Below, piece after piece: positions 8,571 to 61,310 of a stretch of 64,000 nt of DNA; positions within the stretch are counted from its first letter, which is position 1, and every line of letters begins with the position of its first letter. The DNA is from a bacterium (GTDB lineage Bacteria > Bacillota_I > Bacilli_A > RF39 > UBA660), in assembly GCA_963661295.1 (NCBI GenBank), contig CAVLBI010000133.1, forward strand, positions 168 to 64,167. Direction: 5' to 3'. The position numbers and the translations under genes are program-made. The notes beneath the pieces were generated by a model, which saw only the letters and a program-made list of their open reading frames with translations, ran no database searches and was not told the DNA's origin.

Positions 8571-8923
8571 TTGCTTCTTTTTATATGCTTAGAAAAAATA
8601 GCTCCAAGACAACAACTACAAAATATAATTAAATAATAAATTATAAGTCTAAGACTAATTGTATTAAATAGTAAACTACATATAAAAAATGGAATAATAA
8701 ACATAAGTGAATATCTAGAACCAGTAACATAACCTTTAGTCTTATAACTTTCACCAACTATAAAACTACATACAAATAAACTAATAATTAAAGAAAATAA
8801 CTTAAAAAAATTAAATATTTGTAAATTTATAATATCAAAATAATAAAAAACACTAAAAATACTAACAAATAAAACTAAAGATATAATATTAATTAAATAT
8901 AATTTTAAATATTTCATAAACAC
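8567..8923 (-). CDS. small polytopic membrane protein (hypothetical)
   Basis: 118 aa with 3-4 predicted TM segments. It is one of only five minus-strand genes in the window. Confidence 0.45.
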   Translation of the reverse strand: MFMKYLKLYLINIISLVLFVSIFSVFYYFDIINLQIFNFFKLFSLIISLFVCSFIVGESYKTKGYVTGSRYSLMFIIPFFICSLLFNTISLRLIIYYLIIFCSCCLGAIFSKHIKRSN

Positions 8924-8989
8924 CTCAATAAATAAATATGTAAAGTATAAAACAAATATTCTTGGTTATTATAATATTGGGTGAGTAAA

Positions 8990-9631
8990 ATGGAATATTT
9001 AACTATTCTTTTCAGATCAACATTATTTTATCTACTTATAAATTTATTTTATAGATTAATGGGTAAAAGAGAAATTGGTGAATTATCAATAATGGACTTT
9101 ATAGTATCAATATTCATTGCTGAAGTCGCAGGTATTTCTATAGAAAACTATGATGATAGTATATTTCGTTCCTTAATACCAATCATTGTCTTAGTATTAC
9201 TTCAAGTAATTTTTTCATTTATCACTCTAAAAAATAATAAATTTAGAGAAATTGTAGATGGAAAACCATCAGTAATAATAAAAGAAGGAAAGATTAATTT
9301 TGAAGAAATGCTTAAACAAAGATATAACCTAGATGACTTATTAACTCAACTAAGAGAAAAATCAATAAAATCAATTGTTGATGTTGATTATGCAATATTA
9401 GAAACAAGTGGTAAACTATCAGTCTTCGCAAAAGATGAGAAAAATAAAGACTATCCATTAGCCGTAATATTAGATGGAAAAATAGAAGAAGATGTCCTAA
9501 AAGACATAAATAAAAACACATTCTGGTTAGAAGACCAACTAGAAAAGCAAAAAATTTCACTAGATGAAGTATTCTATGCATTTTACAAAGATAAAGATTT
9601 ATATATAATTGAAAAATCTAAGATAAAATGA
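8990..9631 (+). CDS. DUF421 (YetF/YdfS-family) membrane protein
   Basis: RLMGKREIGELSIMDFIV and DYAILETSGKLSV motifs. GGTGAG RBS before ATG 8990. Confidence 0.75.
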   Translation: MEYLTILFRSTLFYLLINLFYRLMGKREIGELSIMDFIVSIFIAEVAGISIENYDDSIFRSLIPIIVLVLLQVIFSFITLKNNKFREIVDGKPSVIIKEGKINFEEMLKQRYNLDDLLTQLREKSIKSIVDVDYAILETSGKLSVFAKDEKNKDYPLAVILDGKIEEDVLKDINKNTFWLEDQLEKQKISLDEVFYAFYKDKDLYIIEKSKIK

Positions 9632-9676
9632 CAATATTCCCTATACAATATTTGTAATATTATCTTGGTGAAACAA

Positions 9677-10831
9677 ATGAAAAAAACAATTTTAATAGTA
9701 TTATCATTATTTCTATTATTATCAATGAATCAAAAAAAAGAAGAAACAGAAAAAGAATCTACTGAAACAAGAGCTATCTTTATAAGTTATATTGAACTAA
9801 GTAAATACATAAAAGGAAAAGATTATGACACAAGCAAAAATAATATAAAAAATATGATTAATAATATAGAAAAATTAAAATGTAACACAATAATATTACA
9901 AATAAGATTTGGATCAGATGCTATATATAAATCAAATATATATCCCACTAGTATGCACATAGTTGAAAATGAAGGAGATGAATACTATGATGTTTTAAAA
10001 TACTTCATAAATATATCCCATAAAAAAAATATTAAAGTAATTGCCTGGATTAATCCCTATAGAATAAGAACAACAGAAGATATATCTACCATATCCGAAA
10101 AAAATCCTGCATATAAATATCTAGATACAGATATTGTCTACATAAACAATGGAATATATTATAATCCATCAAAAAAAGAAACAGAAGATTTAATAATAGA
10201 AGGAGTAAAAGAAGTATTAGAATACAAAATAGATGGACTATTGTTTGATGATTATTTCTATCCTGATACAAAAATAGACGAAAAAGACTACCAAGAATAT
10301 ATAAAGAATAATAACTATATAGAGCCTGATAAATATAGATTAAATATAGTAAATGAAACAATCAAAAAGGTACATAAAGAGTGTTCTAATAAAAATATAG
10401 AATTCGGTATATCTCCTGATGGTAATATTGAAAATAATTATAATAAAAACTATGCAGATGTTAAAACTTGGTTAAAAGAAAAAAACTATGTTGATTTTAT
10501 TATGCCTCAAATATATTATGGCTTTTATAACAGTACAAGAGCATATACAAAAGTTATACATGAATGGGAGTCTCTTATAGAAAATGAAGATATTGACTAT
10601 TATATAGCTCTTGCATTTTATAAAGTAGGTAAAGAAGATAAATATGCGAAAAATGGGTTTAACGAATGGATAGAAAATGATAATATCATAATGAAAGAAA
10701 TAATATTATCAAGAAATCTAAAAAATTATAAAGGATTTAGTCTGTTTAGATATGACAATATCTTTGATAGTGATACATATTCAAGTACTAGTTTAAAAGA
10801 AATAGAAAATCTAAAAAAAGTATTAAAATAG
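9677..10831 (+). CDS. secreted glycoside-hydrolase-like protein (GHL10/DUF187 family)
   Basis: Signal peptide, then the TIM-barrel-like pattern NTIILQIRFGSDAIY ... VIAWINPYRI ... DGLLFDDYFYP. Confidence 0.55.
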   Translation: MKKTILIVLSLFLLLSMNQKKEETEKESTETRAIFISYIELSKYIKGKDYDTSKNNIKNMINNIEKLKCNTIILQIRFGSDAIYKSNIYPTSMHIVENEGDEYYDVLKYFINISHKKNIKVIAWINPYRIRTTEDISTISEKNPAYKYLDTDIVYINNGIYYNPSKKETEDLIIEGVKEVLEYKIDGLLFDDYFYPDTKIDEKDYQEYIKNNNYIEPDKYRLNIVNETIKKVHKECSNKNIEFGISPDGNIENNYNKNYADVKTWLKEKNYVDFIMPQIYYGFYNSTRAYTKVIHEWESLIENEDIDYYIALAFYKVGKEDKYAKNGFNEWIENDNIIMKEIILSRNLKNYKGFSLFRYDNIFDSDTYSSTSLKEIENLKKVLK

Positions 10832-34307: not shown

Positions 34308-36383
34308 CTATACCTTAGGAATTAATGGATTATTATTAATCTTAGGTTGCCCGTTACTTATATTTTGATGAACTGTTGTAGTTGAATTTATAGAACTAAA
34401 TTGTCCAGAATTATAATTGTAATTTGTATTTGAATATGGTTTTGAAGTAGGAGGCGTTGTTGCTGTCGGAGCCGTTGTAGTTACAGTTGATGAAGTCACT
34501 GTTGGTGAAGTACTTTTTGCAGTAGGAATACTTAATATTGTTGGATTAGTACTCTGAGTTTTAGCAGGAATAGTACTTTGGACTGGTGTAGTATTTATTG
34601 TTGGTATAATAGGTTTTGCCTGAATTGGAGGATTAGTAGTAATACTCTTCATAGCAGGAGCTGTTGTAGGAACACCAGCAGTACTTGGGGAAATAGGCGG
34701 CCTAATAACAGGCGCAGTAGGAATTGATGCTACAACTCCAGAAGTATTAGTATTTGTCTTTACCTGACTATCATTTTGTACAATTTGTTTATTTTGAATA
34801 TTATTATTTACATTACTAACAACATTACTTGATTGAATAGGAGCATTAGTATTTGCAACACCTGGAATATTAACTGCTGGCACAGTTTTTTTAGGAGGCA
34901 CATTTACAGAAGCTCCATTTGTCTCTGCACTAATATTTTTATTATCACTTGAATAATTAAAATCACTAGCACTAAATACTGGACCTTTCATCATATTAGA
35001 AATGTTATTTTTATCATTCTTATCAACCTTAGTATCAATTAACTCATCGCTTTCTTGCCAATCATCAGGATTGTTACTAGGTAAATTAGCAGTAACCTCT
35101 TTTAAGAAGTCACCAATTTCACTTTCATAAGTATCATCATCTTCAGTTTCAATTTCAATATTTCTATAAACTTCCTCAAAAGAAGTTTTACCTTCAAGAC
35201 ACTTTATCAAGGCATCTTGTAACATCGTAATAGTTTTATTTGTATAAACCATTTTAGCTAACTCAGTTTTTTCAAGCTTTTCATTATTAAGAGCAGATCT
35301 TATTTCATCATCAAGTTCCAATACTTCATGGAAAGCAATTCTTCCATGATATCCACGTCTACAATGCTCACACCCCTTAGGATTAGCATCCCATATCATT
35401 GGAACATCTCTATGCATAAATCTCTTAAATACTTTTTTCTCATAAGGAGTAGTAGGTCTTTGAAACCTACAATCTGGACATAACATTTTCGCAAGTCTCT
35501 GAGAAATGATTCCAGTTAAAGCAGTAGATAGCAAATATCTTTCAACATTCATATCAAGTAAACGTTCAACTGTAGCTAAAGCATTATTTGTATGGATTGT
35601 AGATAAAACTAAGTGTCCAGTAATAGATGCACGTACAGCAATTTGAGCTGTTTCAGAATCACGAATTTCTCCGATAAGTATAATATTTGGATCCTGACGC
35701 AAAATGGAACGTAGTGCAGCAGCAAATGTCATACCAATTTCTGAATTAACTTGAACCTGGTTTATTCCTTCAATATTCATTTCTATTGGGTCTTCAACAG
35801 TTATAATGTTTTTTTCAGGTTTATTAAGTCCTTGTAGAATAGAGTAAGTAGTAGTAGATTTACCAGAACCAGTAGCACCAGTAGTTAAAATAATACCATT
35901 AGGAATCTCCATCATTCTTTTAATCTTTTTTAAATTTTCTGGATGGAAACCTAAAGAATCAATACCTTCACTACTTCTAGTATAATCCAAAATACGAATA
36001 ACTATCTTTTCACCTTCATTTAATGGTAGAGAAGATACACGCATATCTAAATATGTTCCACCAAAGTCTCCCTTAATAGCTCCATCTTGTGGTAGACGTG
36101 ATTCAGTAATATTCATGTTTGCAAGCAATTTAAGTCTTGTCGTCAAATTTTTCTCATAAGCTTTAGGAACAAAAGTATAGTCCTGGCAATCACCATCAAT
36201 TCTGAATCTTACCATCATTCCATCTTCTCTAGGATCGAAATGAATATCGGAAGCCTTATGATTAGATGCAGCAATAATTATATAGTCGGCAACTTGAGTA
36301 ACAGGAGTCTTTGAAAAATCAAAAGAAACCATAAAGCTCTCAGTACCTTTTTGTACACGTTTTACGTCAAATTGTACCATCAT
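34308..36383 (-). CDS. GspE/PilB/ComGA-family secretion ATPase with a ~270-aa C-terminal Thr/Pro/Asn-rich low-complexity extension
   Basis: Walker A GATGSGKSTT, Asp box, His box GHLVLSTIHTN and tetracysteine CPDC...CEHC. No N1 domain. AAAAGGGG RBS before ATG 36383. The track ORF starts at TTG 36407. Confidence 0.85.
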   Translation of the reverse strand: MMVQFDVKRVQKGTESFMVSFDFSKTPVTQVADYIIIAASNHKASDIHFDPREDGMMVRFRIDGDCQDYTFVPKAYEKNLTTRLKLLANMNITESRLPQDGAIKGDFGGTYLDMRVSSLPLNEGEKIVIRILDYTRSSEGIDSLGFHPENLKKIKRMMEIPNGIILTTGATGSGKSTTTYSILQGLNKPEKNIITVEDPIEMNIEGINQVQVNSEIGMTFAAALRSILRQDPNIILIGEIRDSETAQIAVRASITGHLVLSTIHTNNALATVERLLDMNVERYLLSTALTGIISQRLAKMLCPDCRFQRPTTPYEKKVFKRFMHRDVPMIWDANPKGCEHCRRGYHGRIAFHEVLELDDEIRSALNNEKLEKTELAKMVYTNKTITMLQDALIKCLEGKTSFEEVYRNIEIETEDDDTYESEIGDFLKEVTANLPSNNPDDWQESDELIDTKVDKNDKNNISNMMKGPVFSASDFNYSSDNKNISAETNGASVNVPPKKTVPAVNIPGVANTNAPIQSSNVVSNVNNNIQNKQIVQNDSQVKTNTNTSGVVASIPTAPVIRPPISPSTAGVPTTAPAMKSITTNPPIQAKPIIPTINTTPVQSTIPAKTQSTNPTILSIPTAKSTSPTVTSSTVTTTAPTATTPPTSKPYSNTNYNYNSGQFSSINSTTTVHQNISNGQPKINNNPLIPKV

Positions 36384-36508
36384 TCCAACCCCTTTTGTTG
36401 AATTCAATGATAAATACCATAATTAAAAAAGATTAAAACTATGGCATTTTACTAAAATATATTATATAATAAATTCTAGATAATAGCAAGGAGAGTGACA
36501 AGGAAAAA

Positions 36509-48642: not shown

Positions 48643-48718
48643 GTTCAAATAGTTTAATTGGATAAAATCTTTCCCTCCGACGGAGAAGATAAGGGTTCAA
48701 ATCCCTTTTTGAACACCA
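48643..48718 (+). tRNA. tRNA-Arg (anticodon CCG)
   Basis: Manual cloverleaf: acceptor GTTCAAA/TTTGAAC, D-arm GTTT-AATTGGATA-AAAT, anticodon stem TTTCC/GGAGA with loop CTCCGAC, T-arm AAGGG-TTCAAAT-CCCTT, discriminator A, encoded CCA. Confidence 0.75.
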
Positions 48719-48779: not shown

Positions 48780-48855
48780 GCCGACTTAGCACAGCTGGTA
48801 GTGCAACGCACTCGTAACGCGTAGGTCACTGGTTCGAATCCGGTAGTCGGCACCA
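48780..48855 (+). tRNA. tRNA-Thr (anticodon CGT)
   Basis: Manual cloverleaf: acceptor GCCGACT/AGTCGGC, D-arm GCAC-AGCTGGTA-GTGC, anticodon stem ACGCA/CGCGT with loop CTCGTAA, T-arm ACTGG-TTCGAAT-CCGGT, encoded CCA. Confidence 0.85.
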
Positions 48856-53516: not shown

Positions 53517-55514
53517 GTGATTGAAGTGATAAAAACATCCATTGATATTAATGAAATAAATAAACAAAAAATAATAGATCAAATAAGATGTCTTGCAATA
53601 GACATGATTGATAATGCAAATAGTGGTCATCCAGGAATAGTCCTAGATGCTGCGCCAATGATGTATGCTTTATACGCAAATCATATGAATATTGATCCAA
53701 AGAACCCAACTCTTTTTAATAGAGATAGATTTGTAATGAGTGCAGGACATGGTTCAGCATTATTATATGCAACCCTTTATATGGCAGGTTATGATTTAAC
53801 AATAGATGATTTAAAATCATTTAGACAGATAGAATCAATTACACCAGGCCACCCTGAATATGGTGTAACACCAGGAGTTGATACAACAACAGGACCTCTT
53901 GGTCAAGGCATTGCAACAGCAGTAGGTATGGCAATTGCTGAAGCACATTTAGCAAAAAAATATAATTCAAAAAAAGATATAATCAATCACTATACATATG
54001 TATTAGCAGGTGATGGAGACTTAATGGAAGGGATTTCCTATGAAGCTGCATCTCTTGCTGGAACATTAAAATTAAATAAATTAATAGTACTATATGATTC
54101 AAATGATATATGTCTAGATGGTAAAACAAATAAAACATTCATAGACAACGTTCCAATGCGCTTTATCTCAATGGGCTGGAACGTACTAACAGTAGTAGAT
54201 GGTGAAGACTACGAACAAATATCAAAAACAATTGCTGAGGCAAAAACATCAGTAGATAAACCAACACTAATTCAAATAAAAACAACTATTGGTAAATACT
54301 CAGAATTAGAAGGAACAAATAAAGTTCATGGAAAACCATTAACAAAAGAAGATATAAGTAAAATAAAAGAAAAATTAAATGTAAGAGACATACCTTTTCA
54401 AGTGTCTCAGTCAACAATAGATGAATTCCAGTATGTAATAAATAATCGTTGTAAGAAGATTAGTGAGAAATTTGAAAAATCTTTAGAATCATTATCAGAA
54501 GAAGAACAAAATGAATTAAAGACATTTATGAATAATGATAAAACTATAGATATAAAAGATTTTGTTTATGATACTCCAGAATCATTGGAAGAGTCACCAA
54601 GAGATGCATCATCTAAAATATTAAATGCTATAGTAAAGAAAACTCCATTTGTTATCGGTGGATCTGCCGATCTATTTGGAGCTAATAAAACATATGTTGA
54701 CGAAGTAGGAGATTTTTCAAGCGAAGACTATTCTGGAAAGAACATCTTCTTTGGAGTAAGAGAACATGCTATGGGTGCAATCATTAATGGACTTGCCTTA
54801 TCTGGATTTAGACCATATGCCTCAACTTTCTTATCATTCTCAGATTATTTAAAGCCAGCAATTCGCTTAGGCTGTATGATGAATCTACCAAATGTTTACA
54901 TATTTACTCATGATTCAATAAGTGTCGGTGAAGATGGTCCAACACACCAACCAGTAGAACAATTATTAGCACTTAGAACTATGCCTAATATGGAAGTATT
55001 TAGACCAGCTGATACCAATGAAGTAATTGGATCATACAGAACAATCTTTAGTCAGATAAATTCACCCGCAACAATTGCACTTTCACGAAATAAGCTTCCA
55101 ATACTTGAGTATACAAAAGCAAATATGGTAGAAAAGGGCGGATATGTTGTAGTTGACCCAATGAAAAAGCCACAAGCAATAGTAATATCATGTGGTGAAG
55201 AACTACATCAAGTAATAAAAGTCGCAACAAACTTAAAGACAAAAGGAATAGACATTAGAGTGGTTTCAATGCCAAACTTAGAAAGCTTCTTAAGACAAGA
55301 TGAAGACTACATTGAAAGTGTTTTACCTGTAGAAATAAAGAAAATTGCAGTAGAAACAACACCAGAATACGCATGGAATAAAATAATATTTAATAGTAAA
55401 TATATAATTTCTCAAAATGAATATGGTGCAAGTGGAAAATATCAAGACGTATATAAAAAATTCGGTTTTGATGAAGCGTCTCTAGAAGAAAAAATAGAAA
55501 ATTTACTAAAATAA
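53517..55514 (+). CDS. tkt: transketolase
   Basis: Thiamine-diphosphate binding motifs NSGHPG, GDGDLMEG and a transketolase C-terminal domain. The alternative start is GTG 53526. Confidence 0.9.
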   Translation: MIEVIKTSIDINEINKQKIIDQIRCLAIDMIDNANSGHPGIVLDAAPMMYALYANHMNIDPKNPTLFNRDRFVMSAGHGSALLYATLYMAGYDLTIDDLKSFRQIESITPGHPEYGVTPGVDTTTGPLGQGIATAVGMAIAEAHLAKKYNSKKDIINHYTYVLAGDGDLMEGISYEAASLAGTLKLNKLIVLYDSNDICLDGKTNKTFIDNVPMRFISMGWNVLTVVDGEDYEQISKTIAEAKTSVDKPTLIQIKTTIGKYSELEGTNKVHGKPLTKEDISKIKEKLNVRDIPFQVSQSTIDEFQYVINNRCKKISEKFEKSLESLSEEEQNELKTFMNNDKTIDIKDFVYDTPESLEESPRDASSKILNAIVKKTPFVIGGSADLFGANKTYVDEVGDFSSEDYSGKNIFFGVREHAMGAIINGLALSGFRPYASTFLSFSDYLKPAIRLGCMMNLPNVYIFTHDSISVGEDGPTHQPVEQLLALRTMPNMEVFRPADTNEVIGSYRTIFSQINSPATIALSRNKLPILEYTKANMVEKGGYVVVDPMKKPQAIVISCGEELHQVIKVATNLKTKGIDIRVVSMPNLESFLRQDEDYIESVLPVEIKKIAVETTPEYAWNKIIFNSKYIISQNEYGASGKYQDVYKKFGFDEASLEEKIENLLK

Positions 55515-55560: not shown

Positions 55561-55995
55561 ATGAAAGTCTATTATATTTTTAATGTAAAAAAAGAATTTA
55601 TAAAATTATACAGTGATACTCCAAGTGTATTATATAACATACTAAAAACGATATTTTATCTTGATAAAGAAGAAGTAGAATATGGTTATAATCTCTTTAG
55701 CCAATTAATAATACCTTTCAAAAAAGATGAAATGGATAAAAACCTATTTATAAAACTTCATCAAGATATACCATACTCAAAAAGAAAAAACACTCATTAT
55801 ATAAACAATTTATATTTAAATGAAATAAGTAGATTAGATGTAAATAATTATTATTTAAAACTAGAAGTAGAACAGAATTTTTCTAGTTTTTTTAAAATAC
55901 TAAATAGAGAAAACAAAAATTTATTCGTTTGCTGTTTCAAAAATACTGATTTCTTCTTTCTAAATGATTACTTACTGAAACAATTGCAAGATTAA
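55561..55995 (+). CDS. SirA-like (YneE/DUF2522) protein
   Basis: MKVYYIFNVKKEFIKLY matches the N-terminal YYxYLIKEEF block of SirA. It is located immediately after tkt, as yneE is in Bacillus. Confidence 0.5.
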   Translation: MKVYYIFNVKKEFIKLYSDTPSVLYNILKTIFYLDKEEVEYGYNLFSQLIIPFKKDEMDKNLFIKLHQDIPYSKRKNTHYINNLYLNEISRLDVNNYYLKLEVEQNFSSFFKILNRENKNLFVCCFKNTDFFFLNDYLLKQLQD

Positions 55996-56530
55996 TATAA
56001 AAATAATCGTTAAATTCTAAATAAAGTGCACAATTAAGTGCATTACGACCAAAAATGTGTATTTTCATAAGAAAATGCACATTTTTTTTGTCGCTAAAAT
56101 AATTTAATATGTAAAAAAATAAAAGAATGTGGTATATTATATTGCGACAAGGAACTTTAGTTCCACGTCAAAAAGTGTAGGAATTATATCATTTTTAAAA
56201 GTAAATGCACAATGCCTACATTATTTAAATTATATGGCTTTGGCAATTTGTTTGTCATATGAATAATTATAGTTCGTGGCTATAATTATTTTTATTTTAA
56301 TAAATTATTTGTTAAATCAACATTATCTGGTTCAATATAATAACAATTAAATAATTTCAATATATTTTCATCACATAAGAATAACATTGCTTCATAAGGT
56401 GATTTACCATTTAAGGATTCTCTACATAATGAATTAATATTATTTATAATTAAATTACAGTCTTCTTGAGTAATATTTTTGAAAGAAGAACCTTTAGGTA
56501 AAATATATCTAATAAATTCATGAGTTTACA

Positions 56531-56971
56531 TTGGCTAATGATAAATATAATATGTATACACCAGGAACATATGTAAATATAGTTGAGTATACAACAAACT
56601 TATTAACATATTTAACTAATACATATGAAAATTTAAATGAATTAACATTTATAACCGAAAATGAAGAAGAATTAACACCTGCTGAAACAATGGAAAGAGC
56701 ATTCGCATACTGCTCTCAAGGAGGCGGAATGAGTATTGGAGAAGAATATTCAGAGCTTTTCAGAAATAAAGGTAAAGAAGTACAATATGCAGATTTAAAT
56801 AAAATATATGATTCAAAAGCAACAAAATCTTATAATAAAGAAAAAACTAAATTAAAAAAAGGCTTATACATGAATAAAGAATTAATAGAAGAATTCTTTA
56901 AAAGATTAAAAGTCAGAATTATAGTAAATAAAAATCAAGATACTACAGGTGTCGGACAAATGGGGAGATAA
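56531..56971 (+). CDS. hypothetical protein, a truncated paralog of the C-terminal domain of the 57124..58683 product (possible gene fragment)
   Basis: TTG start with no SD. Aligns to the last ~145 aa of the downstream ORF: PGTYVNIVEY/AGTYVNFNEF, AFAYCSQGG/AFEYCMKNGN, tail LKVRIIVNKNQDTTGVGQMGR/LKVRIKVNENQDTTGVGQMRR. Confidence 0.4.
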   Translation: MANDKYNMYTPGTYVNIVEYTTNLLTYLTNTYENLNELTFITENEEELTPAETMERAFAYCSQGGGMSIGEEYSELFRNKGKEVQYADLNKIYDSKATKSYNKEKTKLKKGLYMNKELIEEFFKRLKVRIIVNKNQDTTGVGQMGR

Positions 56972-56986
56972 TCCTCATTTTTTTAT
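56959..56986 (+). terminator. rho-independent terminator (copy 1 of a duplicated terminator)
   Basis: ATGGGGAGATAATCCTCAT hairpin spans the stop codon and is followed by T7. Confidence 0.5.
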
Positions 56987-57037
56987 AGAAAAAGCAAAAA
57001 AGGCATAAATGAATTTTATAGTAAAGAAAACTTTTAT

Positions 57038-57066
57038 TTGACAATTTTATATATATTTGATATAAT
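57038..57066 (+). promoter_or_regulatory. near-consensus sigma-A promoter (TTGACA-17-TATAAT with TG extension)
   Basis: TTGACA at 57038..57043, a 17-nt spacer ending TGA, and TATAAT at 57061..57066, about 58 nt upstream of ATG 57124. Confidence 0.6.
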
Positions 57067-57123
57067 ATAGAACGTTTAAGGCCGAGGGGTCTTGAATCGA
57101 AAACAAAAATAGAAGGGAATTTT

Positions 57124-58683
57124 ATGAGACAAGAACAAGAAACAATAAAACAAAATGAAAGGAATTTATTTTTTAGGGATAAAGAAAATGATAAAATTAA
57201 ATCAACACCTATACTTATTTCTAAAGATGGAGAGGATATTGAAAATTCAAATCGTATAAAAATTAAAATTTATGACGCAACTCTTCAAAATAAAATAGGA
57301 CAAATATGTATATATAAAAATAATAGCGATATGATTTCGTTAACTACATCAGATAAATTTGAAATATCATTTGAAACGTATTTTGATTTATTAGAGGTAT
57401 TATCTAATTATTATGCTGACTCTAATCATACAAAAATAATAATTAACACTAAATCAGCAAGTGCTGAAGAATTAAAAAATTACTTAAAGAAACATATAAA
57501 TGATAAAACAATTAATCATTGTCAACTATATAGAAATAATAGGCAAGTGGAAGATTATGATGATCTTGAAGGAGAAACTCATTTGTATATTAATAATCAA
57601 GATAAAAGAGCATATATAAAAATACCATATGATATTAAGACTAGAACAATTATAAAAGACCAATTAGAAGAAACTGCAAAACATCTTCAAAGGTGTATTA
57701 GAAATGATGAATATGAAATATATGCAATAAATAATGCCAACGAAGTATATGGAAAATTAACTTTAGATAAGTTGCTTGGAAATGAGAAAATCACAGATAA
57801 AGATTTAGGGATATATGAGTATCGCTCATATGACTATAAATATGTAGTTAATAAAATGAATCAACAAATTAGTATTCAAATGATTAAAGATGAACGAAAC
57901 TATGATTTTGCCACTAAATTATTAATAGATTTTATAGTAAGGGAAGCAGGTAAATTCAATCATTATTCTTATATAGATTTTAATGAATTTCCAATTCCAA
58001 AATTAAGAGATTTTTATTTTGATAATGGTAAAGAAAAAATGATTACAACAATAAAACTACTAATAAAAGACAAAGAAAAAGATATGTTTATTGAAGGACC
58101 TATAAATACGGAATTATTAGATAGTCAAAATGCAATAGTTATAACAAAAGAAGACGAAACAGATGATATGTCATTAACAACAAGTCCAACTTTAAGATAT
58201 ATTTATGATGCAAAAAATAGAGAAAATGTATTTATGGGAGAAACTCGTAAATTCAAAGACAAAGCTGGAACATATGTAAATTTCAATGAATTTCTTGAAA
58301 GATATAACGCTATTCTTATGTGTATGTATGGAATTGATGATTTAGATAAAATAACATTTATTTCAAATACAAATAAAATATTAAAATATGACAAAGCGAT
58401 GAAAATAGCATTTGAATATTGTATGAAAAATGGAAACATATTTTGTGTAGGAAAAGAAATACGTTCGGCTTTATCATCTAAAAAGAATGAAGATATAACA
58501 TATGAAGATGTTAAAGATTTATATGATGGTTCATCAGATTCATATAAACAAGGCAGAGTTGAATTAAAACGAGGTATTTATATAGAAAAAGAAATGTTAG
58601 AGAAAGTTCTTAAGTTCTTAAAAGTAAGAATTAAAGTAAATGAAAATCAAGATACAACAGGTGTTGGACAAATGAGGAGATAA
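57124..58683 (+). CDS. hypothetical 519-aa cytoplasmic protein of unknown family
   Basis: Long ORF with no TM segment, Walker motif or other recognised motif. Its C-terminal ~145 aa is paralogous to the 56531..56971 product. Confidence 0.7.
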   Translation: MRQEQETIKQNERNLFFRDKENDKIKSTPILISKDGEDIENSNRIKIKIYDATLQNKIGQICIYKNNSDMISLTTSDKFEISFETYFDLLEVLSNYYADSNHTKIIINTKSASAEELKNYLKKHINDKTINHCQLYRNNRQVEDYDDLEGETHLYINNQDKRAYIKIPYDIKTRTIIKDQLEETAKHLQRCIRNDEYEIYAINNANEVYGKLTLDKLLGNEKITDKDLGIYEYRSYDYKYVVNKMNQQISIQMIKDERNYDFATKLLIDFIVREAGKFNHYSYIDFNEFPIPKLRDFYFDNGKEKMITTIKLLIKDKEKDMFIEGPINTELLDSQNAIVITKEDETDDMSLTTSPTLRYIYDAKNRENVFMGETRKFKDKAGTYVNFNEFLERYNAILMCMYGIDDLDKITFISNTNKILKYDKAMKIAFEYCMKNGNIFCVGKEIRSALSSKKNEDITYEDVKDLYDGSSDSYKQGRVELKRGIYIEKEMLEKVLKFLKVRIKVNENQDTTGVGQMRR

Positions 58684-58695
58684 TCCTCATTTTCT
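58672..58695 (+). terminator. rho-independent terminator (copy 2)
   Basis: Perfect palindrome ATGAGGAGATAATCCTCAT spanning the stop codon, then TTTTCT. Confidence 0.55.
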
Positions 58696-58818
58696 ATTGG
58701 TATAAAGTTAAAGTAAAATGAAAAAATTATTAAATATAAGCTTAAAACCTTCTATATCACAAAAACCACTTGTATAAATTCTTGTTTTTTGTAATAATAT
58801 TACTGAGGAGATGATTTA

Positions 58819-59028
58819 ATGCTACATGATATATTACTTGTTGTAGTTGGCCTTTTAATCGGATTAGTAATCGGTTTCTTCGTAGCACGTACATTAATGA
58901 AGAAATATTTAAAGAAAAATCCCCCAATCAATGAAGATATGATTAAAGCTTTAATGATGCAAATGGGAAGAAAGCCAAATCAAAAACAAATAAATCAAAT
59001 GATGAAAGCAATGGAGAAATATCAATAA
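58819..59028 (+). CDS. yneF: UPF0154 (YneF) small membrane protein
   Basis: [47 protein letters not shown] matches the YneF family consensus. Confidence 0.8.
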
Positions 59029-60854: not shown

Positions 60855-61310
60855 ATGAAATTAAATAAAAAAGGATTTTCATTGGTTGAATTACTAGGAG
60901 CAATAGTAATCCTTGCAATCATGATGGGACTTGCAACAGCAGCATATTCAAGATATAGACAAAAAGCAAAACAACAAGGATATGATACAATGGCAGAGTC
61001 TGCAAGTAATGCAGCATCAGAATATGTAATGGATCACCCTGGAGCTTATCAAGTAACTTTTGAAGAATTGTATGAACAAGAATATATGAGTTCACTACAA
61101 GACCCAGGTAAAAAAGACAAAAATTGTACAGGAAATGTAATTTTAAGGACAGCAAAAAATGAGGATGTTGGGGCGCTAGATACGGAAGAATACTACGTAA
61201 ATGTTTGCTGCAAAAATTATAATTACTCATATGTCTTCCCAGGAGGAAGTAAAACAAAGAACAAAGAGTGCAATGTAGAAGCAGACGCATGTTCTGTTGG
61301 TTCATGCTAG
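60855..61310 (+). CDS. prepilin-type pilin-like protein with a Cys-rich C-terminus
   Basis: MKLNKKG|FSLVELLGAIVILAIMMGLATAAYS. C-terminal CTGNV...VCCKNY...CNVEADACSVGSC. Confidence 0.75.
   Translation: MKLNKKGFSLVELLGAIVILAIMMGLATAAYSRYRQKAKQQGYDTMAESASNAASEYVMDHPGAYQVTFEELYEQEYMSSLQDPGKKDKNCTGNVILRTAKNEDVGALDTEEYYVNVCCKNYNYSYVFPGGSKTKNKECNVEADACSVGSC

Follow-up and report, generated by a model that had tools for sequence, protein, structure and literature searches.

A probable remnant of a strain-variable tandem paralogue array next to yneF in uncultured gut Bacilli

Introduction

Strain-variable tandem multigene families occur in host-associated bacteria, the variable surface-protein arrays of Mollicutes being an example. 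Here we analyze a locus with a similar organization in a 64,000-nucleotide (nt) stretch of contig CAVLBI010000133.1 (assembly GCA_963661295.1; henceforth the window), whose guanine-plus-cytosine (GC) content is 27% and which comes from a clade of uncultured, low-GC, spore-forming gut Bacilli. Between a SirA-like gene and yneF the window has a gap of ~2.8 kb containing an open reading frame (ORF) of 146 codons and a second ORF encoding a protein of 519 amino acids (aa). An initial annotation had regarded this pair as a two-ORF module inserted into a conserved neighborhood and possibly serving in defence. Judging from its anatomy and history, the interval is very probably the eroded remnant of a lineage-specific array of tandem paralogues next to yneF.

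Like the arrays of Mollicutes, the locus comprises head-to-tail paralogues at one site, each with its own promoter and all with one conserved segment, the rest having been shuffled or duplicated; strains differ in gene content, pseudogenes occur frequently, and the conserved end hints at gene conversion. Unlike those arrays, its products have no lipoprotein or secretion signal and no transmembrane segment, no invertible or homopolymer switch was identified, and the conserved part is a folded C-terminal domain (C-domain) rather than an N-terminal leader. Polymorphic toxin and poly-immunity loci likewise form tandem arrays with rapid divergence, modular domain swapping, and strain specificity, but the polarity is reversed here (constant C-terminus, variable N-termini), and neither a recognized trafficking, toxin, or immunity domain nor an adjacent toxin-immunity pair is present. 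The kind of feature, a strain-variable tandem paralogue array decaying through insertion sequence (IS) activity, is familiar, whereas the family itself is an undescribed orphan whose fold is apparently unmatched.

Results

Close relatives carry arrays of which the window probably retains the end

Three matches to the 519-aa protein were found in a word-indexed collection of 5.8 billion proteins, and their contigs gave the close relatives considered below, that is, genomes whose tkt, yneF, uvrC, and mutL proteins are 97-100% identical to those of the window. Between sirA and yneF, the loci L004, L005, L006, L009, L012, and L013 hold three to five tandem paralogues on the same strand, with content that differs from locus to locus. 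L004 has genes A (573 aa), B (548 aa), C (654 aa), D (868 aa), and E (524 aa) in this order, with an IS605-type TnpB gene between A and B; L005 has C (659 aa), D (863 aa), and E (873 aa) up to the contig end; L006 and L013 have A, B, and C, of which B and C are split by frameshifts in some genomes; and L009 has the same A, B, and C with B in five pieces. Such frameshifted fragments are found again on 12-13 independent contigs and so do not reflect assembly noise. Each paralogue comes with its own TTGACA/TATAAT promoter, leader, and stop-spanning terminator, the hairpin sequences differing between the types, and all have a C-terminal domain of ~180-190 aa in common. From this layout, genes A-E would be monocistronic, with up to five of them in the ancestral state.

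The TnpB/OrfB gene of L004 (1966-3096, +) encodes 376 aa with OrfB_IS605 and Cas12f1-like_TNB domains, and its position within that array indicates that different mobile elements have hit the locus in different genomes.

The short ORF of the window (called at 56531-56971, +) sits in the place of D, directly upstream of E, as D does in L004 and L005, and its product is 74% identical at the aa level to the C-termini of D868 (L004) and D863 (L005). Homology to D at the DNA level starts at ~56516 (...IHEFT-LANDKYNMYTPGTY...; ...IHEFTLANDKY), and since it extends five codons upstream of the TTG at 56531, this TTG, previously taken as a start, encodes an internal Leu of a truncated gene. Just 5' of the homology start, at the junction with a transposase fragment described below, there is an in-frame TAA. 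No Shine-Dalgarno (SD) sequence precedes the ORF, as had been noted, and it has no promoter of its own either. We conclude that the short ORF is the 3' stump of a gene of ~865 aa, left by an IS30-associated deletion: a pseudogene remnant of ~151 of ~865 codons (56516-56971, +) that ends in a stop-spanning intrinsic terminator found by terminator scan (56958-56987, +; fold -10 kcal/mol, z=-2.5). The right deletion junction falls inside gene D, at ~56516-56530. The paralogy of the two ORFs, recognized from the outset, is clear: the short one aligns to residues 381-519 of the long one with 40% identity over 140 residues (E=2e-27). The same arrangement, identical to that of the window, is present on a contig of the metagenome-assembled genome (MAG) GCA_963596385.1.

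The view of the interval as accessory and variable stands, since its content differs among genomes that are 99% identical in tkt, yneF, and uvrC, and since the family is missing from some species of the clade. The two-ORF module does not, for the short ORF is a 5'-truncated stump and relatives carry up to five paralogues with independent transcription signals.

An IS30-family remnant lies at the junction of the missing genes

The 535 nt between the SirA-like gene and the short ORF had been described as noncoding, but are in part coding. Six-frame translation reveals on the minus strand the end of an IS30-family transposase (56292-56525, coding part 56295-56525), whose frame reads THEFIRYILPKGSSF...NNLLK. 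This fragment matches positions 235-266 of 267 of the NCBIfam transpos_IS30 profile (E=0.004) and, by tblastn, aligns over 99% of its length to annotated transposases of the IS30 family from plasmids of Clostridium and Butyrivibrio, with 47-50% identity (best 50%, E=9e-12). It consists of the last 77 codons plus the stop, the N-terminal ~250 codons being gone; a full-length IS30-family DDE transposase is therefore absent from the site, and the sequence is a remnant rather than an element. As in IS30 elements with IS-associated deletions of adjacent DNA, the transposase C-terminus lies exactly at the junction of the missing array genes; unlike such elements, the remnant is confined to these last codons and is single-copy within the window.

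On the other side, similarity to the close relatives is lost in the last few sirA codons or immediately past the stop, at the point where the relatives have a hairpin with a T-run followed by the promoter of a 573-576-aa gene. The segment that follows in the window (55996-56291, no strand assigned) replaces the promoter and leader of this first array gene; it has no counterpart in close relatives, with no alignment to L006 or L009 past the sirA stop, and probably stems from the IS30-family element as its non-coding end. A terminator-like hairpin lies within it on the minus strand (56042-56027), 3' of the transposase remnant.

The simplest history would be a two-step one. An IS30-family element would have entered next to sirA, and a deletion running from inside the element to inside D would then have eliminated A, B, and C along with the 5' ~83% of D (~720 codons). 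Such a deletion would leave what the window holds: 77 transposase codons, ~150 D codons with their terminator, and the intact E gene.

The remaining E gene is intact and retains its expression signals

The 519-aa ORF (57124-58683, +) is an intact E-type gene of the family; its product is identical in two MAGs and one sequencing run and 78-79% identical to its ortholog in L004. The near-consensus promoter assigned to it is present at 57038-57066 (+), a sigma-A-type TTGACA-17-TATAAT with an extended -10 TG that matches at 12/12 positions, is the sole perfect promoter match of the region, and is kept upstream of E in both L004 and L005. The gene is probably well expressed. Directly after the predicted transcription start lies a leader stem-loop with an AAGGCC-GAGG-GGTCTT core (57073-57099, +; fold -13.5 kcal/mol, z=-3.0), also kept in L004 and L005; in the L004 copy, a G.U pair of the stem has become an A-U pair by a G-to-A change. 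No Rfam family, and hence no riboswitch or other known RNA, was found in the region at gathering thresholds, and we infer that the stem-loop would serve to stabilize the mRNA. The SD sequence GAAGGG (57112-57117, +) is located 3' of it.

The gene ends in a stop-spanning terminator (58665-58696, +; fold -13.6 kcal/mol, z=-2.9) that is 91% identical to that of the stump and was missed by the consensus terminator scan, its T-tract being weaker. Hairpins spanning both stop codons had been pointed out before, and both fold. The reported ~90% DNA identity between the two ORFs over the final ~36 codons and the terminator is correct for a shorter stretch: it is 91% for the last ~60 coding nt, the stop, and 12 nt beyond, but 79% over the 36 codons, and drops to 50-65% 5' of these. 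The conserved tail with its terminator is seen again, for these two paralogue types, in the genomes L004 and L005, where D and E are 84-96% identical in the last ~75 nt, while paralogues A, B, and C have other tails and other hairpins.

Recent gene conversion had been proposed for this tail. In its favor, D and E have two variants in common within a genome that differ between genomes (GAC in L004 and the final AAA in L005); against it, orthologs are closer to each other than paralogues of the same genome over the last 140 nt. Occasional conversion is thus possible. At the protein level, the terminator stem includes the last four codons, and disorder is predicted for the ~11 residues before them (predicted local distance difference test, pLDDT, <50).

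Among the distinct family proteins, 33 of 36 (P0001-P0037; positions 58675-58680 in the window) end in Lys or Arg, often as ...TK, although the 10-20 residues before it vary in both length and sequence. This terminal Lys/Arg overlaps the terminator stem in the close paralogues.

Array proteins combine one C-domain with different N-terminal modules

Comparison of the family members by blastp and by alignment delimits an N-terminal module of ~320 aa in E (57124-58089, +), of which A, B, and E519 have one copy and D and E873 two. It is followed by the family-defining C-terminal alpha/beta domain (58096-58680, +), in which the motifs G-x-Y-x-N and G-x-Y and a single Gly (the G of an RFG motif) are nearly invariant. 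Since the invariant positions are limited to Gly, Tyr, and Asn, with the Cys of close paralogues not conserved, the C-domain fits binding or assembly better than an enzyme. The AlphaFold2 model of the 519-aa protein (pLDDT 76) consists of small beta-beta(-beta)-alpha-beta-beta units arranged as a chain; modeled alone, the C-domain reaches a pLDDT of 87.7 and a predicted template modeling score of 0.82. No transmembrane segment or signal peptide was found in any member (maximum 19-residue Kyte-Doolittle mean <=1.26).

The absence of a recognizable motif, already remarked upon, was upheld: neither ORF matches a known family in Pfam, NCBIfam, PHROGs, or PADLOC. PHROGs gave noise only (E>=0.019 for both ORFs), and none of the 5027 defence models of PADLOC-DB v2 matched either ORF at E<=1. 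A Pfam scan of 37 family members returned only single sub-threshold matches, to HopA1 and Chap-C, with no match to immunity (Imm) or SUKH families. Sequence and profile searches of the PDB with the C-domain (in two alignments), the N-module, the distant N-domain (see below), and paralogue C found nothing below E=0.1, and a Foldseek fold search of BFVD found nothing at E<=0.001. There was also no match, in sequence or in fold, to the domains of the type III secretion/YbjN-type (TY) chaperone superfamily. A phage origin of the modules finds no relative in IMG/VR and no match in PHROGs or BFVD. Two internal derivations were rejected, both with an hhalign probability <1%: that the C-domain is a further copy of the N-module, and that the N-module derives from the N-domain of distant members.

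Paralogue C is present in L004 (5144-7108), L005 (167-2146), and L006 (10296-11834) and absent from the window. Its N-domain aligns to positions 25-144 of the 170-position profile of the Pfam family HopA1 (PF17914; E=0.002), with a score of 18.3-18.7 bits that falls short of the cut-off (22.7), and includes a motif of the type R.DT(I/V)V(I/L)YC; the window proteins have no HopA1 match. HopA1 is a type III effector of Pseudomonas, and HopA1-like proteins are phosphoserine/phosphothreonine lyases in pathways for peptides synthesized ribosomally and modified post-translationally (RiPPs) (PMC9486802). Paralogue C resembles HopA1/LanY proteins over a long stretch of the profile, but differs in its sub-cut-off score and in having neither a RiPP cluster nor a type III secretion context. 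It may combine an enzyme with the family C-domain.

This HopA1-like domain bears on a reading of the array as a repertoire of exported effectors or surface proteins directed at the host or at competitors, with the C-domain or tail as a non-classical export or anchor signal and the N-modules as payloads. A type III effector with phospho-Ser/Thr lyases among its relatives (PMC9486802) would suit a payload, as would the constant C-terminus with its variable partners, the strain-level variation in gut-associated organisms, the basic residue at the end of nearly all members, and a neighboring pilin that is hypervariable as well (see below). However, there is no locus-linked secretion system and no export signal in any member, the HopA1 match is below threshold and missing from the window, HopA1-like enzymes are also cytoplasmic in RiPP pathways (PMC9486802), and the stop-overlapping terminator hairpin is a confounder for conservation at the extreme tail. 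We consider this reading unlikely. The same low standing applies to its broader form, in which the family comprises undescribed, fold-novel modular effectors whose C-domain, perhaps together with the basic C-terminus, acts in non-classical export or docking and whose payloads hit host, phage, or competitors. If it were true, strains would carry different effector repertoires through an ongoing arms race.

The family is an old resident of the yneF neighborhood

An exhaustive HMMER search of 1.84 billion cluster representatives (E<=0.001) found 35 family proteins, every one matching through the C-domain only. The word-indexed collection had yielded few members (3, 3, and 5 matches), and a GTDB pattern scan based on the close-family profile gave no match. 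Among named records, the closest are gut MAGs (human, ruminant, and rodent) of uncultured 'Mollicutes', Erysipelotrichaceae, and Bacilli. Most of the distant members are proteins of 300-400 aa composed of a helical N-domain of ~80 aa (pattern M.K.DYI..L...ENPFLT.EDI..L...EYFA.AM.K.I), a variable count of acidic ~14-aa repeats, and the C-domain. In all distant loci examined, 9/9 (L015, L017, L022-L028), the family gene is single and located past yneF, before uvrC, giving the order tkt-sirA-yneF-X-uvrC-pilin-mutL with X as the family gene. Four species have no member there (L016, L018, L019, L021), three of them with contiguous tkt-sirA-yneF(-uvrC). The close relatives all carry their family genes between sirA and yneF.

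The proposed synteny break therefore holds relative to other species, sirA and yneF being adjacent in L015, L018, L019, L021, and L022-L025. Whether most relatives have syntenic copies, as a core gene would, receives a divided answer: the family is syntenic, but its content is not conserved and its presence is not universal. A recently inserted mobile cassette does not agree with the residence of all nine distant members between yneF and uvrC or with the substitution rates given below. The distribution instead points to an old, vertically inherited, dispensable resident of the yneF neighborhood, which in the species of the window sits on the other side of yneF and has been amplified with new N-terminal modules.

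A free-standing module of 167 aa (…GLIMYDKDG…HH…, …LLLEG..xQIYLP..I…) is encoded between sirA and yneF in L017 (11004-11507, +). As it recurs as the N-terminal part of distant members (L015 8508-10637, P0013, P0027, P0028, and P0030), domain shuffling spans species.

The distribution allows another reading to be weighed, in which the protein is a structural component of some structure of the cell or spore specific to the lineage (coat, septum, or nucleoid-associated), quasi-core and single-copy in general and amplified in this species. One yneF-uvrC copy of simple architecture in distant species would fit, and so would the presence of the sporulation genes SpoIIP, GPR, and SirA, the lack of an export signal, and the rapid evolution typical of such proteins. 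Yet the promoters look to be of the sigma-A type rather than the sigma-E or sigma-K type, and the family's absence from four species together with the free decay of the arrays argues against an essential role, which leaves this reading improbable.

One of the distant loci, L022, has an ORF of 537 aa between the family gene and uvrC (8777-10390, +), with a Gly-rich N-terminus, a helical region, an Ala-rich C-terminus, and no Pfam match; it might encode a toxin-like or secreted protein. An unannotated neighbor of this kind (Gly-rich, helical N-terminus) could speak for a locus of the poly-immunity type, in which tandem cytoplasmic binding proteins neutralize the toxins of competitors, and so could the tandem, strain-variable, pseudogene-rich genes and the soluble, small alpha+beta units without catalytic motifs. 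We regard this as very improbable: no Imm or SUKH match exists among the members, no toxin gene adjoins the family in the window or in L001-L014, the proteins (520-870 aa) far exceed the typical size of immunity proteins, and a HopA1-like enzyme domain does not fit.

The suggestion that the locus acts in anti-phage defence or abortive infection would have the variable N-modules sense infection, the C-domain act as effector, and the short ORF serve as partner or decoy. Strain-variable copy number, fast evolution, and variable N-termini on a constant C-terminus would be expected of such a system, and IS elements in or next to the locus are common in defence islands. With PADLOC-type defence islands the array indeed has in common that it is a variable accessory locus with IS traces; it differs in the lack of homology to defence models, in its fixed chromosomal position across species, and in its housekeeping neighbors (tkt, sirA, yneF, uvrC, and mutL). 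Moreover, the short ORF is a truncation product rather than a partner, each array gene has its own promoter and terminator instead of belonging to an operon, the C-domain shows no conserved catalytic pattern, there is no sign of horizontal movement, and two profiles found no relative on 2.9 million viral contigs of IMG/VR. A defence or cassette function is thus the least supported reading and quite unlikely.

E diverges by amino acid change at a background of ordinary synonymous divergence

Rates of nonsynonymous (dN) and synonymous (dS) substitution were computed by the Nei-Gojobori method, comparing the window with L004 for E, uvrC, and yneF, L004 with L005 for D and C, and L004 with L006 for A. 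E has a dS of 0.23, a dN of 0.111, and a dN/dS of 0.48; the values are 0.27, 0.008, and 0.03 for uvrC and 0.11, 0.006, and 0.05 for yneF. The other array genes give a dS of 0.36, a dN of 0.169, and a dN/dS of 0.47 for D, 0.22, 0.082, and 0.37 for A, and 0.49, 0.078, and 0.16 for C. That the dS of E is about that of uvrC speaks for vertical descent of E, and a dN/dS well below 1 speaks for the intact genes being functional. The dN of E, however, is 14-fold that of uvrC, and this excess together with the frequent pseudogenes indicates weak and/or diversifying selection; we infer the nature of the pressure on the array from these comparisons.

Flanking genes and other features of the window

The left flank is formed by tkt (53517-55514) and, downstream of it, the SirA-like gene (55561-55995, +). 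Its product matches Pfam PF10747 with 32.6 bits (cut-off 26), residues 3-135 aligning to profile positions 2-137 of 140, and has no NCBIfam match in the profile library scan. To the right, yneF (UPF0154; 58819-59028, +) matches Pfam PF03672 above the gathering threshold (106.4 bits, E=6.8e-31), and uvrC begins 36 nt after it. The coordinates initially assigned to these two flanking genes and to both ORFs proved accurate throughout.

A second strain-hypervariable gene lies between uvrC and mutL and encodes a pilin-like protein with an N-terminal methylation motif (window 60855-61310, +; L004 13748-14203; L005 9804-11655; L006 14435-16286). It shows 70-76% aa identity where uvrC is 99% identical, with a dN/dS of 0.27, and measures 151 aa in the window versus 473 aa plus an extra ORF of 133 aa in close relatives. 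Within an otherwise plus-strand housekeeping stretch, the window also encodes a 699-aa type II/IV secretion ATPase (T2SSE, E=2e-116; 34308-36407, -), which may be the assembly ATPase of the variable pilin 25 kb downstream. Two tRNA genes (48643-48715 and 48780-48852, both +) are the only Rfam matches in the window at gathering thresholds.

Discussion

We favor an explanation in which the window holds the remnant of a tandem paralogue array reduced by an IS insertion and a deletion, and in which the array proteins join a docking C-domain to interchangeable N-modules; for this explanation as a whole we estimate a probability of roughly 0.6. Its functional part is the more tentative one and would read as follows. 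The array products would be soluble modular proteins that end in the same alpha/beta domain of ~180 aa, and this domain would serve in all of them for docking or assembly, bringing interchangeable N-modules to one shared partner or site. Acting as N-modules would be the ~320-aa unit, in one or two copies, and, for paralogue C, a putative HopA1-like enzyme. The locus would be under weak purifying and diversifying pressure, while being dispensable enough to decay in individual strains. Docking by the C-domain is a possibility that we regard with reserve.

Several observations weigh against this explanation or parts of it. The 300 nt at 55996-56291 are IS-derived by presumption: no IS30 inverted repeats or target duplication were identified, one end of the element is deleted, and the window offers no second copy. 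Since the 146-codon frame of the stump is still open in a genome of 27% GC, either the truncation is recent or the stump keeps some use. A dN/dS below 1 with frequent pseudogenes fits simple relaxed constraint equally well. The invariant Gly, Tyr, and Asn residues could line a site for a small molecule or nucleic acid instead of a protein interface. Finally, the fold comparison covered BFVD, and a match to an uncharacterized predicted fold is possible.

For annotation, the consequences are that the 146-aa 'hypothetical protein' becomes a pseudogene fragment, that a seemingly empty intergenic stretch is an IS30 scar, and that the ORF pair is not a functional two-gene system. The locus further defines a small orphan family, which accounts for 35 of 1.84 billion clusters and is restricted to a single clade of uncultured gut Bacilli. 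The family's C-domain is confidently predicted and has no match in the PDB, and the locus combines presence/absence variation at the strain level, domain shuffling, and the 14-fold excess of amino acid change. Until a function is assigned, the family is one of many metagenomic orphan families. Loci of this type are often found at the interface with host, phage, or competitors, which makes the family a reasonable target if these bacteria are cultured.

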